36,665 nucleotides of DNA, taken from Candidatus Nomurabacteria bacterium. Its GTDB lineage: Bacteria; Patescibacteriota; Minisyncoccia; Phycocordibacterales; UBA9973. Position numbers and translations under genes: made by a program. The DNA lies in assembly GCA_943356395.1 (NCBI GenBank), contig CALRFC010000001.1, positions 1 to 36,665 on the forward strand, given 5' to 3'. Each line of letters starts with the position of its first letter. The first letter of the stretch is position 1. A model generated the notes under the pieces. The model was given only the letters and a program-made list of their open reading frames with translations. It was not told the DNA's origin and did not search any database. Below, piece after piece: positions 3,021 to 36,665 of the stretch.

Positions 3021-4076
3021 TCACTCCCCAGAGGAGGCAACCTGTATCTCTCCGAACCGTGCGCGAATTTCTTTTTCGAAATCTTTCAAGACTTTCGGAT
3101 TTTCGCGGAGCCACATGCGGGTAGCGTCATAGCCGCGTCCCATCGGAGTCTTTTCACCCTCTTTATTCTTGTACGAATACGACGCGCCGGATTTCTCGAT
3201 GATGCCGAGCTTCTCGCCCAAGGCCATCATTTCGCCTTCGCGGGAAATGCCTTCGCCGTAGATGATGTCGAATTCCGTTTGCTTGAAAGGCGCGGCGACT
3301 TTGTTCTTCACCACTTTCACGCGTGTCCTGCCGCCTACGACTTCTTCACCCTTTTTGATCTGCGCGATGCGGCGGATATCGAGACGGACCGAGGTGTAGA
3401 ATTTGAGCGCTTTTCCGCCCGGCGTGGTTTCCGGATTGCCGAACATGACGCCGATCTGCATGCGGATCTGGTTTATGAAAATCACGACGGTCTTCGAGCG
3501 GGCGACGATCGCGGTCAGTTTGCGGAGGGCCTGTGACATCAAGCGGGCTTGTTTGCCGACATGCGATTGGCCCATGTCGCCCTCGATCTCGTCTTTCGGC
3601 GTGAGCGCGGCGACGGAGTCGATGACGATAACATCGATCTTGCCGGAACGCACGAGTGACTCGCAGATTTCGAGGCCTTGCTCGCCGGTGTCAGGTTGGG
3701 AGATCAGAAGCTCGTTTATATTCACGCCAAGGTTTTTCGTGTAGACGGGGTCCATGGCATGCTCGGCATCGATGAATGCGCAGACGCCGCCTTTTTTCTG
3801 GGCTTCGGCGACGATGTGGAGCGAAAGCGTCGTCTTGCCGGAGGATTCCGGCCCGAAGATCTCGATGATGCGGCCGCGGGGGATGCCGCCGACGCCGAGT
3901 GCCATATCGAGACCGAGAGAGCCGGTCGGGATGACATCAATGTCGACTTTCGGACTGTCGCCGAATTTCATGATTGCACCTTCGCCGAACTTCGTCTGGA
4001 TGGAACGGATCGTGTCCTCAATCTCCGCGCCCATCTGCTTCTTTTCCTTTTCCGGTTTTTTTCCAAATCTTGGCAT
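3021..4076 (-). CDS. recA: Recombinase RecA
   Basis: 351 aa with Walker [10 protein letters not shown] and RecA signatures [31 protein letters not shown] and [22 protein letters not shown]. Confidence 0.97.
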
Positions 4077-29932: not shown

Positions 29933-29951
29933 CTGTCCGAACGGATTCATC

Positions 29952-30038
29952 CGGGCGGGCAAAAAGCCCGCCCGACTGAACGACAATAATACTTCAGTCC
30001 CCTCCAGAACGACTCTGTCGGGCTGGGTTCGGGCGGGC
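29952..30038. repeat. CCCGCCCGA-word hairpins
   Basis: CGGGCGGGC-AAAAA-GCCCGCCCG (29952-29974). A second GGGTTCGGGCGGGC lies at about 30024-30038. Related to the copies at 32047-32094 and 33807-33846. Confidence 0.55.
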
Positions 30039-30333: not shown

Positions 30334-30680
30334 GGAAAATAATGAGTGAAGCGAATATATTTTCCATAACCCTGTTAAATAATTTTAAATCATGTCGCGG
30401 TATCATTACACATACGTATTGCGATCAAAGAAAGATAGCGATTTGTACGTTGGGTGTACCGCTGATTTAAAATTACGATTTGAGCAACATCAGAAAGGTC
30501 AAGTTGAGTCAACAAAGAATCGACGACCGCTTGAGTTGATATACTTCGAATCATGCTTGTCTAAAAGCGATGCACTACATCGTGAAAAATATTTTAAGAC
30601 ATATCATGGTAAGCAGTTTATCTACAAGAGGCTCAAATCGTATTTAACAGGGTGAGATTTTCCGCTTCGCTACAAATCTC
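30334..30680. mobile_element. GIY-YIG ORF cassette bounded by nested inverted repeats, ending at the rplJ start codon
   Basis: ACCCTGTTAAATA (30369-30381) is the perfect reverse complement of TATTTAACAGGGT (30641-30653). GGAAAAT (30334-40) pairs with ATTTTCC (30657-63). Flanking local hairpins have loops carrying GTGAAGCGAA and CCGCTTCGCT. Confidence 0.45.
30392..30655 (+). CDS. GIY-YIG domain nuclease-family protein (stand-alone, 87 aa)
   Basis: YHYTYVLRSKKDSDLYVGCTADLKLRFEQHQKG...REKYFKTYHGKQF. Confidence 0.9.
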   Translation: MSRYHYTYVLRSKKDSDLYVGCTADLKLRFEQHQKGQVESTKNRRPLELIYFESCLSKSDALHREKYFKTYHGKQFIYKRLKSYLTG

Positions 30681-31169: not shown

Positions 31170-31190
31170 ATTATAAATAATAAACTAGGC

Positions 31191-31251
31191 TTTAGGCACT
31201 AGGCTCTAGCAAAAATGCTAATGCCTAACGCCTAGTAGCCTAGTGCCTAAA
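31191..31251. repeat. TAGGC-word hairpin between rplJ and rplL
   Basis: TTTAGGCACTAGGC (31191-31204) is the perfect reverse complement of GCCTAGTGCCTAAA (31238-31251). Confidence 0.7.
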
Positions 31252-31256
31252 ATATT

Positions 31257-31649
31257 ATGGAAGAAAATAAAAATGTGGAAGTTCCTGCGAAGTTCAAGGA
31301 CATCGTTTCGAAGATCGAAGAAATGTCCGTGCTTGATCTTCATGAGCTCGTGAAAGTGTTTGAAGAAAAATTCGGCGTTTCGGCCGCAGCCGTTGCCGGT
31401 CCGGCCGCCGCAGCCGCGGGCCCTGCCGCTGAAGAAAAAGACAGCTACACGGTCGTCCTTTCTGCCGCAGGCGAACAAAAAATCGCCGTGATGAAGGCAG
31501 TCAAGGAAGCTCTCGGACTCGGACTCAAGGAAGCAAAAGATCTCGTCGATGGCGCGCCGGCAACCCTCAAAGAGGGAATGAAGAAAGCCGAAGCGGAAGA
31601 ACTCAAGAAAAAGATAGAGGAAGCGGGAGGGAAAGTTGAGCTTAAATAG
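31257..31649 (+). CDS. rplL: 50S ribosomal protein L7/L12
   Basis: 130 aa with an Ala/Pro hinge ([19 protein letters not shown]) and C-terminal domain [27 protein letters not shown]...[14 protein letters not shown]. Confidence 0.95.
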
Positions 31650-31936
31650 CTCAACTTTCGGCCGGAGGCTGTCGAGCCGAGGCGTGGTCAGGCAAAATTC
31701 TAGCAAGAATTTATGCGTGACAAGTCGACTTAAAATAACAAAGTTATTTTAAGGGACTTTACGGCCGGAACGCCCGAAGGCCGCGCACAGCAGTGCGCGG
31801 AAGTGAGGCGGGTGAGACGCGAATACTTGGAGCGTCGCAAGACCTTGAGCGTTTTGTACTCAAAATGCGAAAGGTGTACAGTTCCTGTAAGGAACGCATG
31901 GCTCTGCGAGCGACGGCGAGTAGAGAACATGTGGCC
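31646..31936 (+). other. Non-coding, highly structured segment of about 300 bp between two 13-bp direct repeats at the rplL 3' end
   Basis: AAGTTGAGCTTAA occurs at 31633-31645 and 31937-31949. Internal perfect hairpins include CCGCGCAC-AGCA-GTGCGCGG (31781-31800), TAAAATAAC-AAA-GTTATTTTA (31731-31751) and GTTCC-TGTAA-GGAAC (31881-31895). Confidence 0.5.
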
Positions 31937-31975
31937 AAGTTGAGCTTAAGTAAATTAGAGATTCAAAACAAAAAA

Positions 31976-32000
31976 TCCCTGAAAATTTCGGGGGTTTTTT
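31976..32000 (+). terminator. Intrinsic terminator downstream of the second rplL-end copy
   Basis: TCCCTGAA-AAT-TTCGGGG stem (with G-U pairs) followed by TTTTTT (31995-32000). Confidence 0.6.
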
Positions 32001-32046
32001 GTACCCAAAAATGCCAAATGGCAAGACTTGCATTTTTTTCTATACG

Positions 32047-32094
32047 CTACCCGCCCGAACGACTGAATGATTGACACTGTTCAGTCGGGCGGGT
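32047..32094. repeat. CCCGCCCGA-word hairpin
   Basis: ACCCGCCCGA (32049-58) pairs with TCGGGCGGGT (32085-94), and CTGAA with TTCAG. CTACCCGCCCGAACG (32047-61) is identical to 33807-33821. Confidence 0.7.
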
Positions 32095-32118: not shown

Positions 32119-32760
32119 ATGGAAACTCTCGGAAAACTCTTCAATTCGACCGCTCGCGTGAAAATCATGCGTCTTTTCCTCTTGAATCCGAACACAGTTT
32201 TCAACACAAAAAGCATTTCATCGAGGAGCAAAGTCGCCATGGGGACGCTCCGCAAAGAGCTCTCGTTGCTCATTTCCGCAAAATTCATCAAGCGCAAGGC
32301 GCTCTCGAAGAAAAATCCGCCGGCCAAGCGGCGTTCCGGAAAAAAGAAAAAAGCGGCTTCTTCGGGCGCGGGTTTCGTCTTGGATCAGAATTTCAGCTAC
32401 GGCGATTCTCTGCGCGAGCTTTTGATCGATGCGGCTTTCATCAAGCATGAGACGCTCGCCAAGAATTTCAAGAAAGCCGGACGCGTGAAGCTCCTCATCG
32501 TCGCCGGCGTCTTCACGCACGATCCGGAGAGCCGGCTCGATCTTCTCGTCGTCGGCGACAATCTGAAGCGCCGTGCGGTCGACAGCTACATCAAGAATCT
32601 CGAAGCTGAGATCGGCAAGGAGCTCTCGTACGCGATGTTTGAGACTTCCGATTTCCTCTACCGCCGTGACATGTACGACAAGCTGGTCTGCGATGTGCTC
32701 GATTTTCCGCATGAGAAAGTGATCAATGCCGTTGGAGTGGCGAATAAGGTGAGGGAGTAG
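32119..32760 (+). CDS. Hypothetical protein: N-terminal wHTH-like region, basic linker and C-terminal minimal nucleotidyltransferase-like region
   Basis: 213 aa from ATG 32119. ARVKIMRLFLLNP...MGTLRKELSLLISAKFIKRK, KRRSGKKKK, LLIVAGVF...RLDLLVVGD. Confidence 0.55.
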   Translation: METLGKLFNSTARVKIMRLFLLNPNTVFNTKSISSRSKVAMGTLRKELSLLISAKFIKRKALSKKNPPAKRRSGKKKKAASSGAGFVLDQNFSYGDSLRELLIDAAFIKHETLAKNFKKAGRVKLLIVAGVFTHDPESRLDLLVVGDNLKRRAVDSYIKNLEAEIGKELSYAMFETSDFLYRRDMYDKLVCDVLDFPHEKVINAVGVANKVRE

Positions 32761-33790: not shown

Positions 33791-33911
33791 TCCTAGAACC
33801 TAAAAACTACCCGCCCGAACGTACCGTTCGGTACAGGCGGCGAACCAAGAACCTGAATTCCCGTTTGACATTCAAGCATATATTATGGTAATTTAATGAA
33901 AATTCTTAACA

Positions 33912-35438: not shown

Positions 35439-35608
35439 TGGTGATTCTTACATTTCCTAATAGGAAATGTAAGAGCATATGGTGGATGCCTTGGTTTTGT
35501 ATGGCGATGAAGGACGTGGTATGGCTGCGATAAGCTTCGGGGAGGTGCCTAGCAACCGTTAATCCGAAGATGTCCGAATGGGGAAACCTCATTGCGTAAA
35601 CCGCAATG

Positions 35609-35670
35609 GCGTGCTTTGCACACAGTGTTTAAATATTTAAATATTTAAATATTGCGCGCAGAGCGCGCGC
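35609..35670 (+). repeat. 23S insertion block 1 (E. coli ~130-150 region)
   Basis: Extra sequence relative to E. coli, containing ATATTTAAATATTTAAATAT (35633-35652) flanked by GC-rich palindromic arms (TGCGCGCAGAGCGCGCGC). Confidence 0.6.
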
Positions 35671-35763
35671 TCACCCGGGGAAGTAAAACATTTCAGTACC
35701 CGGAGGAAAAGAAAACAATTGTTATTCTCCTAGTAGCGGCGAGCGAAAAGGGAAGAGCCCAAA

Positions 35764-35837
35764 CTGCGCATCACATTGCATGTGATGCTGATATTTAAAT
35801 ATTTAAATATCAGCATCGCGCGTAGCGTGATGCGCAG
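35764..35837 (+). repeat. 23S insertion block 2 (E. coli ~270-280 region)
   Basis: Closed by CTGCGCATCAC...GTGATGCGCAG. Internal perfect palindrome GATGCTGATATTTAAATATTTAAATATCAGCATC. The 20-mer lies at 35791-35810. Confidence 0.65.
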
Positions 35838-36140
35838 GGTTGTAAGGTGACGATGTAGATTTATCTAGAAGAGTTACAAAATATTTTGTTAGCGGAAGGC
35901 GCTGGAAAGCGCCGCCATAGAGGGTGATGGCCCCGTACGCGAAAATAAAATATCTCTTTGGTCGTCATTCTTGAGTACTTCGAGACACGAATAGCTCGGA
36001 GGAATCCACCGGAACTAACCGGTAAGGCTAAATACATACAAAAACCGATAGTGAACTAGTACCGCGAGGGAAAGGTGAAAAGAACCCCGATAAGGGGAGT
36101 GAAATAGATCTGAAACCATATGCTTACAAAGAGTCGGAGC

Positions 36141-36224
36141 GGACGCATCACACAGTGTGTGATGCGATATTTCAATATTTAAATATTTAAATATCAGCAT
36201 CGCGCTTTGCGCGATGCGCCCGTC
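36141..36224 (+). repeat. 23S insertion block 3 (helix 25 region, E. coli ~540-550)
   Basis: GACGCATCACACAGTGTGTGATGCG, then the 20-mer (36175-36194), then CAGCATCGCGCTTTGCGCGATGCGC. Confidence 0.65.
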
Positions 36225-36665
36225 ACGGCGTGCCTATTGAAGAATGAGCCAACGAGTTTATGCATATTGCGAGGCTAAGTCTTATAAACGGATGGAGCCG
36301 CAGGGAAACCAAGTGTTAATAGCGCGATTAAGTAGTATGCATAAGACCCGAAGCCAGGTGAGCTACCCATGAGCAGGTTGAAGTTTATCGAAAGATAGAT
36401 GGAGGACCGAACCGGTGAGCCGTTCAACACTCTCGGATGACTTGTGGGTTGGAGTGAAAAGCTTATCGAACCTGGTAATAGCTGGTTCTCTCCGAAATAG
36501 CTTTAGGGTTAGCGTCGCGTGTTCCTTTTGGGGGTAGAGCACTGGAAGATTTCGACAGGGAGCAATCTCGCGAAATCTATCAAACTCCGAATACCAGAAG
36601 TCAAAAACGCGGCAGTTAGACGGCGGGGGCGAAGCTCCGTTCGTCAAAAGGGAAACAGCCCAGAT

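Follow-up and report, generated by a model that had tools for sequence, protein, structure and literature searches.

Probable stacking of two small, RNA-structured insertion modules at the rplL 3′ end of a Candidatus Nomurabacteria bacterium

We have analysed the 3′ end of rplL, the gene for ribosomal protein L7/L12, in a 36,665-nucleotide stretch of DNA from a Candidatus Nomurabacteria bacterium (contig CALRFC010000001.1; the whole stretch is referred to below as the window). Positions 31631-31936 would represent two stacked, non-autonomous insertion modules, each carrying its own copy of the last rplL codons. We hold this description with considerable confidence. The full explanation, which adds trans-acting site-specific recombination and expression of the modules as RNA in the 3′ untranslated region (UTR), is given a probability of about 0.55. 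The evidence comprises the architecture of the locus, its recurrence in relatives and restriction to rplL, a polymorphism between empty and filled sites, the behaviour of each gene-end copy and its reverse complement as one unit, and the conserved structure of one of the modules.

The rplL gene (31257..31649, forward strand, as are all features described here) encodes 130 amino acids ending in ...GGKVELK-stop, and an identical protein carries the Pfam domains Ribosomal_L12_N and Ribosomal_L12. Its nearest RplL proteins bear labels of Patescibacteria of a Paceibacterota-like kind. Inspection of the sequence and a repeat finder located AAGTTGAGCTTAA at 31633-31645 and again at 31937-31949, with 16 of 17 positions matching when the adjoining A/G-TA is included. 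A sequence-only reading of this DNA had reported that both 13-bp repeats complete rplL as VELK-stop; both copies do lie in frame (GTT GAG CTT AAA TAG and GTT GAG CTT AAG TAA). The chance expectation for an exact copy of a 13-mer within 700 nt is about 5e-5. The same reading placed a terminator behind the distal copy, and a palindrome with a T-run is present at 31968-32002. It looks like the native terminator, of the intrinsic type; a homologous terminator stands directly 3′ of rplL in relatives that lack an insertion. It is the sole terminator-like element between rplL and the next gene; a consensus terminator scan missed it because its loop exceeds 8 nt. The rplL stop codon sits at the loop of a perfect hairpin (31631-42 with 31648-59), which had been noted but taken as 10 bp long, and is in fact 12 bp. 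In addition, 31648-57 is complementary to 31937-46 according to the repeat finder.

The intervening DNA had been taken for a single segment. This did not hold, as a third, diverged copy of the gene end at 31721-38 divides it into two modules. We use T for a gene-end copy, T′ for the reverse complement of T and body for the hairpin-rich remainder of a module, so that the window reads T0, T0′, body 1, T1, T1′, body 2, T2, terminator. T0 (31631..31649) comprises the functional last codons (K V E L K stop) and forms the 5′ arm of the stop-codon hairpin, a 12-bp inverted repeat; T0′ (31648..31659, repeat finder) is the 3′ arm and overlaps the stop codon by 2 nt. The body of module 1 (31660..31720), designated type B, is homologous to positions 1880-1945, 740-805 and 3383-3485 of the related loci L299, L100 and L094. 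T1 (31721..31738) reads CAA GTC GAC TTA AAA TAA, or Q V D L K stop, and was located with the repeat finder and by a BLAST match to the rplL end of L090. T1′ (31743..31759; repeat finder and minimum free energy structure) pairs with it perfectly over 11 bp and through four further pairs beyond a 2-nt mismatch. The body of module 2 (31760..31936, 177 nt) starts with CGGCCGGAA and ends with ATGTGGCC, as delimited from the fold and by comparison of its ends with type B; the ends are type-B-like, but the body is expanded by at least five extra hairpins, including 31781-800, 31849-68 and 31881-95. T2 (31937..31953), the distal copy, reads (C)AA GTT GAG CTT AAG TAA and aligns, together with its flank, with the empty sites of L291-294.

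The interior is thus packed with hairpins as described before, with two corrections: the hairpin placed at 31721-59 is T1 with T1′, and that at 31849-68 is not perfect, containing one G·U pair. The GC content of the segment, about 0.52, is above that of neighbouring spacers (0.37-0.43) and not above that of the flanking genes, so that the interior is GC-rich only by the former standard. Among the 32 genes of the window, rplL alone combines a hairpin, a direct repeat and a peptide-level copy. Two further assemblies, L081 and L082, contain the identical sequence; the segment is therefore not an assembly artefact.

The 336-nt stretch folds at -145 kcal/mol (z = -9.3 against shuffles), compared with -116 kcal/mol for the antisense strand. 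The sense strand is the more stable in 14 of 15 inserts, which suggests that the modules are probably structured 3′-UTR RNA. As the only terminator follows the last gene-end copy, they should be transcribed as the 3′ UTR of rplL. The body of module 1 consists of a GCC/GGC helix enclosing a purine loop (G-GA / GA), a hairpin H1 (31667-78) and a hairpin H2 (31687-31720). RNAfold gives a common layout for the window, L299 and L100, in which the T:T′ helix is followed by the invariant GCC/GGC helix with purine loop and H1, and then by H2. When the four type-B units were aligned by fitting to a covariance model, 96% of cells were paired and 17 of the 35 pairs had changed on both sides; none of 500 shuffles reaches 17, and slid controls give at most 5 pairs. 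T and T′ covary as well, with GTTGAGC/GCTCAAC in the window and L299 and GTTACC/GGTAAC in L100. The bodies of L299 and L100 are 89% identical, compared with 72% for their rplL genes and 46% for third codon positions. Judged by these identities, the type-B body is too conserved for neutral drift.

Two further structural readings were tried and rejected. The purine loop is a tandem G·A motif with a 1-nt bulge and not a canonical kink-turn. Pairing of T′ with the distal gene-end copy to close a riboswitch-like domain, which gives 10 bp in the window, fails in L299, L094 and L091.

For comparison, about 180 rplL loci were gathered (L numbers denote individual loci). In many Patescibacteria, rplL, a terminator and an open reading frame (ORF) beginning ME(T/I)LxKLFG follow one another in synteny, with gaps down to 14-100 nt; these are empty sites. 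The corresponding ORF of the window (METLGKLF..., 32119..32760) belongs to no Pfam family. It is a conserved syntenic neighbour of rplL in Patescibacteria (34 loci by tblastn) and marks the far side of the insertion site. At least 14 further lineages of Patescibacteria show the arrangement T, T′, body, T-copy, terminator at the 3′ end of rplL, with one to three units (L001, L006, L030, L083, L085, L090, L091, L094, L099, L100, L283/284, L285, L286 and L299/300). The inserts are non-coding, with modules of 27-215 bp, and tandem units are present in the window (T0/T1/T2), L285, L030 and L085.

At least five unrelated body types occupy this one position. Type A, with the signature GGAGG-hairpin-CRAGG, is found in L001, L030 (two units), L099, L285 and L283/284. 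Type B, with the signature GGCCGGARG ... GAGGCGKGG ... GTGRCC, is represented by module 1 of the window, L299/300, L100 and L094, and by the ends only of module 2. Type C, of about 27 nt, occurs in L006, L083 and L090, type F in L285 and L286, and other bodies in L085 and L091. In the related loci, every exact VxLK-stop copy follows rplL by at most 150 nt (in the window the distance is 292 nt), and the opposite strand has none in 439 kb. R1, a covariance model built on type B, was searched against 444 kb. All strong matches (E below 1e-15) fall at rplL stop codons, the weaker ones being other rplL-end hairpins or noise, and the model finds no second site in the window. Likewise, the search for further copies of the segment returned none elsewhere in the window or in the 444 kb of loci. 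The body of module 2 has no BLAST or nhmmer match among the roughly 180 loci. In a population check of two abundant relatives (P0048 and P0064) every site was empty.

Close relatives differ in whether, and how often, the site is occupied. L298 is empty, with the stop codon followed by the terminator, whereas L299/300, with an identical RplL protein, carry one type-B unit. A similar series runs from L287-289, which are empty, through L286 with a single module to L285 with two. An empty site had been predicted for relatives and is found in L291-293, which read ...GGTAAGGTTGAACTTAAGTAAATTAAAC followed by the terminator; T2 and its flank in the window, CTTAAGTAAATTA, align with these sites. Empty sites and size polymorphism among close relatives thus support the proposal that the insertion regenerates its target gene end.

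The pairing of the copies indicates what constitutes a module. In all arrays an internal T is the complement of the next T′ and not of the preceding one; a module is therefore T + T′ + body. The functional end of L286 equals the internal T1 of L285, beside the same body type, which places the newer unit proximally. L285 is also a mosaic with its breakpoint at the insertion site, being 90-91% identical to both relatives upstream and 95.5% identical to L286 downstream; to judge from this mosaic, homologous exchange between strains clearly contributes.

The origin of the proximal gene end was considered in the light of codon choice. T0 + T′ of L299 (AAAGTTGAGCTTAAATAGCTCAACTTTTC) is essentially identical to its window counterpart (one extra T), at only 72% nucleotide identity between the two rplL genes. 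The distal copy of L299, AAC GTA GAA CTG AAA TAC, has the GTA GAA codons of the empty L298 (AAA GTA GAA CTT AAA TAA) and has begun to decay. The proximal copy was thus most likely imported with the module, and the distal copy at 31937-53, beside the native terminator, would be the displaced native end. Positions 31633-45, previously called the real end of rplL, are the functional end but on this evidence probably not the original one.

Searches for known families gave no assignment. Rfam 15 returned no match for 31646-31936, either at the gathering threshold or at E<=10, and none at E<=0.1 for the inserts of 11 related loci. A structured RNA outside the known classes had been suggested; it is in agreement with this result and with the covarying homologues of module 1. 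A scan for tRNA and transfer-messenger RNA found none. The interior had also been said to hold no convincing ORF, and its five small ORFs (38-93 amino acids) indeed have no Pfam match and no conservation, module 2 being without homologue. BLAST of the inserts against phages and plasmids gave no match. A loose type-B motif has at least 120 matches in viral contigs. These were rejected as chance because they lie in GC-rich phage genomes (median GC 0.63) and lack the hairpin context; a specific H2 pattern has no match in viral contigs. In L001, L003, L009, L011, L012, L018, L024 and L121, the ORFs that separate rplL from the conserved gene downstream were examined for an autonomous parent element and include no integrase. 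Read by eye, and for four in L001 and L003 also by Pfam, they are surface or unknown proteins and a Cas1/CRISPR (clustered regularly interspaced short palindromic repeat) locus. A full-text literature search for rplL insertions in Patescibacteria returned nothing relevant.

We propose the following course of events. A module would enter at or just upstream of the Lys-Val codons, five codons before the stop, so that its own T takes over as the functional end, with the former one displaced downstream and left untranslated. Integrative elements behave in this way at the ends of tRNA and housekeeping genes. In the first event module 2 (T1, T1′ and the body to 31936) would have inserted before the native end at 31937-53; later, module 1 (T0, T0′ and the body to 31720) would have inserted before T1. 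Insertion may proceed by site-specific recombination between the module T and the chromosomal T. The likeliest agent would be a trans-acting tyrosine-type recombinase, as for elements of the ICESa2603 type (ICE, integrative and conjugative element), which have the same 15 bp as their target, and homologous exchange would assist the spread from strain to strain. Co-transcription with rplL would produce the modules as structured 3′-UTR RNA, in which the T:T′ hairpin would serve to insulate the rplL message or make it more stable. The fully empty allele is predicted to read GGAGGG joined to AAGTTGAGCTTAAGTAA..., and circle junctions would read ...GCGTGAC joined to AAAGTTGAGC and ...ATGTGGCC joined to AAGTCGAC.

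Several observations weigh against this proposal. The modules measure 27-215 bp, and double-stranded circles of such lengths are at or under the lower limit for easy excision. The copied gene end is about 12, 18 or 24 nt long according to body type, so there is no single att (attachment) core, and as the crossover lies 5′ of T, the T:T′ palindrome is not placed like a classical core site. Apart from RecA no recombinase is present among the 30 ORFs checked in the 36.7-kb window; none of the selected flanking ORFs screened beside the roughly 180 rplL loci is an integrase, and no large autonomous element flanked by rplL-end copies lies within the 2-4 kb of downstream flank. Module 2 is without homologue, so that its hairpins have no covariation support. 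The codon changes in ten pairs of gene-end copies, 23 synonymous and 4 non-synonymous (P about 1e-7 even with one copy drifting freely), speak for the proposal, but the bias is partly ascertainment, since some copies came from a peptide-level search. Finally, the window and L299 have identical T/T′ and bodies only 72% identical, while L299 and L100 have bodies 89% identical and different T/T′. T/T′ thus goes with the host no less than with the body lineage, so that T and T′ also co-evolve in situ, through selection on the hairpin or templated correction of the palindrome, and this blurs the case for an imported end.

Other explanations were weighed against these data. The modules could be decayed remnants of large integrative elements (an ICE, an integrative and mobilizable element (IME) or a prophage) that once integrated at rplL by their own tyrosine integrase, internal deletions having left att-proximal DNA of the kind known as cis-mobilizable elements (CIMEs). 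The att position is that of the ICESa2603 family, in which tandem accretion is documented, the direct repeats include the gene end, and tandem accretion of decayed elements has been described as usual (PMC5704250). Independent deletions, however, would not converge on one 60-70-nt body with constant ends (CGGCCGGARG... and ...GTGRCC), yet such a body is common to the window, L299, L100 and L094. Compensatory pair changes and the sense-strand folding bias suggest selection on RNA structure, and neither an intact parent element at the roughly 180 loci nor a phage or plasmid match was found; we consider decay an unlikely origin. We think it slightly less probable still that a transposase-like or Cas1-like integrase inserted only T′ and body while duplicating 12-24 bp of target, the functional copy then drifting synonymously to pair with T′. 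The insert is flanked by direct repeats, and casposons make long target duplications at the 3′ ends of translation genes. Being complementary to the target, T′ could guide the insertion. T agrees throughout with the amino acid of the host (E, T or D), and T0 and T2 differ mainly where pairing with T′ improves (TAG vs TAA in the window, GTT GAG vs GTA GAA in L299). Yet the series T2, T1, T0 would then require VELK to become VDLK and VELK again, with 5 changes and 5 reversions, and the internal T1 of L285 equals the functional end of L286 and not that of L285. The duplicated length is not constant, there are no general terminal inverted repeats (T′ of L299 does not match its own T2), and neither dispersed copies in the window or the 444 kb of loci nor a transposase or Cas1 in the window was found.

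The segment might instead be a host cis-acting 3′-UTR RNA of the rplJL operon, serving as message stabiliser, processing signal or autoregulatory mimic that binds L10/L12, grown by local duplication, exchanged by ordinary homologous recombination and not mobile. Much of the structural evidence fits such an RNA: co-transcription is expected from position, with the only terminator after T2, the structure is conserved with covariation and sense-strand bias, and the conserved purine-rich internal loop (GCC-G-GA ... GA-GGC) resembles a protein-binding motif. An Rfam scan detected no L10 leader upstream of rplJ, and the breakpoint of the L285 recombinant lies at the site. Comparison for an L10-binding mimic gave only a chance-level 10-mer with the L030 rRNA, the 23S rRNA of the window stopping at position 1032. 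At least five unrelated body types at one site and many close relatives without any module make a single conserved regulatory function unlikely, and gene-end copies whose codon choices are foreign would not arise by local duplication. We therefore put the chances of a purely host-encoded element as low as those of a target-duplicating integrase. A chance repeat or a chimera of assembly or multiple displacement amplification deserves hardly any weight. Palindromes and short repeats are typical of amplification chimeras, but the identical sequence stands in three independent assemblies, which effectively refutes this explanation; the same architecture occurs across many projects and lineages, and the chance expectation is about 5e-5.

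A more far-reaching form of the stacked-module proposal is that these are a new class of miniature, self-contained ‘gene-end cassettes’, in which a replacement end for rplL is joined to an antisense arm and a structured RNA. In bacteria of the candidate phyla radiation (CPR) they would stack, integron-like, one before the other at the end of a gene that is among the most highly expressed. T′ would then serve as target recognition or guide sequence and the RNA cargo as 3′ UTR, possibly in a nucleic-acid-guided recombination. We regard this as doubtful, though worth stating.

Further features were noted in the rplL 3′ regions of relatives. L283 and L284 (2364-2420) are 99.9% identical over 855 nt upstream, yet differ at eight or more positions in the rplL end, loop and T′, and this marks the region as a hot spot. 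The L284 hairpin is perfect over 18 bp; that of L283 is broken, and its loop is GCGAAGC, a sequence known as an unusually stable DNA mini-hairpin. Seven independent assemblies (Logan contigs L314-L320) break off within the terminator palindrome, all of them precisely 49 nt past rplL; assembly was interrupted by the palindrome, and no biological polymorphism is involved. In L115 and L118 the first 110 nt past rplL contain TAAGTAA-like words between two copies of GCCAACGTAAGTTGGAGTAA after the stop codon (AAGTAA), and this run of words may be a degenerate array of very short gene-end copies. Downstream of rplL in L087 (1457-2400), a small antitoxin-like ORF is followed by the start of a PemK/MazF-like ORF (MQQRDIYLADLNPTKGKEQ...). 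Judged by eye only, these toxin-antitoxin-like ORFs appear to be another kind of cargo at the rplL hot spot. L003 (4496-7050) has a miniature CRISPR-Cas locus between the rplL terminator and the conserved downstream ORF, comprising a 416-amino-acid ORF without Pfam match, Cas1 (PF01867, E=5e-20) and three repeats of 37-41 nt at a spacing of 71-72 nt.

The surroundings of the operon in the window contain additional repeats and small genes. Upstream of rplL lies rplJ (ribosomal protein L10, 30681..31169), whose homologue in L081 carries PF00466 (Ribosomal_L10). The spacer between both genes (31184-31251) contains a perfect 15-bp inverted repeat (31191-205 with 31237-51) and, nested with it, a second, imperfect one of 19 nt, both composed of TAGGC/GCCTA words; they could form a processing or regulatory hairpin. 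An ORF of 87 amino acids with a GIY-YIG nuclease domain (30392-30655, Pfam E=7e-16) lies 25 nt upstream of rplJ. In relatives this slot holds a 23S_rRNA_IVP protein (L285) or unknown ORFs (L283, L286); small genes thus vary on the 5′ flank of the rplJL operon too. A 118-amino-acid ORF of the 23S rRNA-intervening-sequence protein family (PF05635) is located at 1495-1851 between ssb and efp. Three intergenic regions around the rplJL block (29951-30037, 32050-32093 and 33810-33818) contain inverted pairs of a short palindromic motif, (C)AGTCGGGCGGG / CCCGCCCGACT(G), including five exact copies of TCGGGCGGG; the motif is REP-like (repetitive extragenic palindromic). The 5′ 1.2 kb of a 23S rRNA gene lies at 35459-36665. 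Set against the bacterial model, it contains a number of additional insertions (about 38, 29 and >60 nt), a frequent trait of CPR bacteria; L030 and L085 have a 23S gene at the matching relative position.

If the stacked-module proposal is correct, integrating at the last rplL codons and rebuilding them is a strategy not only of large ICEs in streptococci but also of tiny non-coding modules in CPR/Patescibacteria, a group with reduced genomes and poorly known mobile elements. Modules on the rplJL transcript would point to several undescribed structured-RNA families with a built-in expression platform, at least one of which has covarying helices and a conserved purine-rich loop. The stacked gene-end copies would be a record of successive insertions and of gene flow between strains. 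A mechanistic question then arises as to what recombines modules of 60-200 bp precisely at one codon boundary, and whether the antisense arm takes part in target recognition. In practice, gene callers and assemblers could be led astray by the distal ‘pseudo-ends’ and by palindromes at stop codons.

Of the known mobile units, miniature inverted-repeat transposable elements (MITEs) and REP-like elements are similarly small, non-coding, hairpin-rich, non-autonomous and variably present. MITEs, in contrast, have many dispersed copies, terminal inverted repeats and fixed short target duplications, whereas the modules are seen at one gene end only, have no general terminal inverted repeat and bring a coding-competent replacement gene end. 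A MITE was rejected as T′ of L299, L100 and L094 matches the proximal gene end and not the distal one, the repeat length varies from 12 to 24 nt, and no other copy is present in the window or the 444 kb of loci. The suggestion that 31648-57 and 31937-46 form a terminal inverted repeat holds as a pairing in the window but not as a general feature, T′ of L299 matching the proximal copy only; its combination with a 5-bp target-site duplication (TAAAT/TAAGT) fails in other loci. Integron cassettes resemble the modules in being small promoterless units stacked at one site, each with a perfect or imperfect palindrome and expressed from upstream, the newest unit probably being proximal here too; they differ in that neither IntI nor attI is present and the cargo is RNA structure, not an ORF. 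The pair GTTGAGC/GCTCAAC fits the attC consensus GTTRRRY/RYYYAAC. This reading was rejected, as the fit is a by-product of the Val-Glu-Leu codons and is gone in VTLK hosts. A group I intron, with T:T′ as P1 and internal guide sequence, was also rejected: the pairing is all Watson-Crick without a U·G pair, no Intron_gpI match or core is found, modules of 27-65 nt exist and the exon end is duplicated. Casposon or Cas1 integration, which goes with terminal inverted repeats and identical target duplications of 14-15 bp, was dismissed, as the window has no Cas1 and the copies differ at several sites even in stacked arrays; the Cas1 of L003 belongs to the small CRISPR locus after the terminator.

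The closest likeness is to the elements that integrate at rplL in streptococci. The last 15 bp of rplL are an established att site for ICESa2603-type tyrosine integrases, and at the rplL 3′ end the integrase of ICESa2603 acts on TTATTTAAGAGTAAC, which reads GTT ACT CTT AAA TAA (VTLK-stop) on the complementary strand (PMC4735348). Tandem accretion is frequent at this site, and decayed att-flanked CIMEs are known (PMC7168690; PMC5704250). ICEs of the ICESa2603/Tn5252 family and IME_rplL share the target with the modules, namely the last four to five rplL codons and the stop, and each copy in L094 differs by 1 nt from the streptococcal att core GTTACTCTTAAATAA. In both cases the direct repeats include the gene end, the gene stays intact and tandem accretion takes place at the site. 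Thus gene-end direct repeats, empty/filled polymorphism and tandem accretion are found as in ICEs, IMEs and CIMEs; a recombinase was not among the 30 window ORFs or the flanking ORFs inspected in relatives. ICESa2603-type elements are, however, 10-90 kb long, protein-coding, equipped with their own integrase and hosted by Firmicutes. The modules are of 27-215 bp, non-coding and RNA-structured, with an inverted gene-end copy each and no integrase found, and belong to Patescibacteria. With CIMEs they share attL/attR-like flanking repeats, the lack of recombination genes and stacking with later arrivals; CIMEs are random deletion products of larger elements, whereas the modules are small conserved units with defined ends and helices that covary across distant hosts. 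The module family at the rplL end seems to be undescribed. Gene-end-regenerating, site-specific insertion at rplL is known; what is new is that the inserts are miniature, non-coding, RNA-structured and stackable, and that they occur in CPR bacteria.

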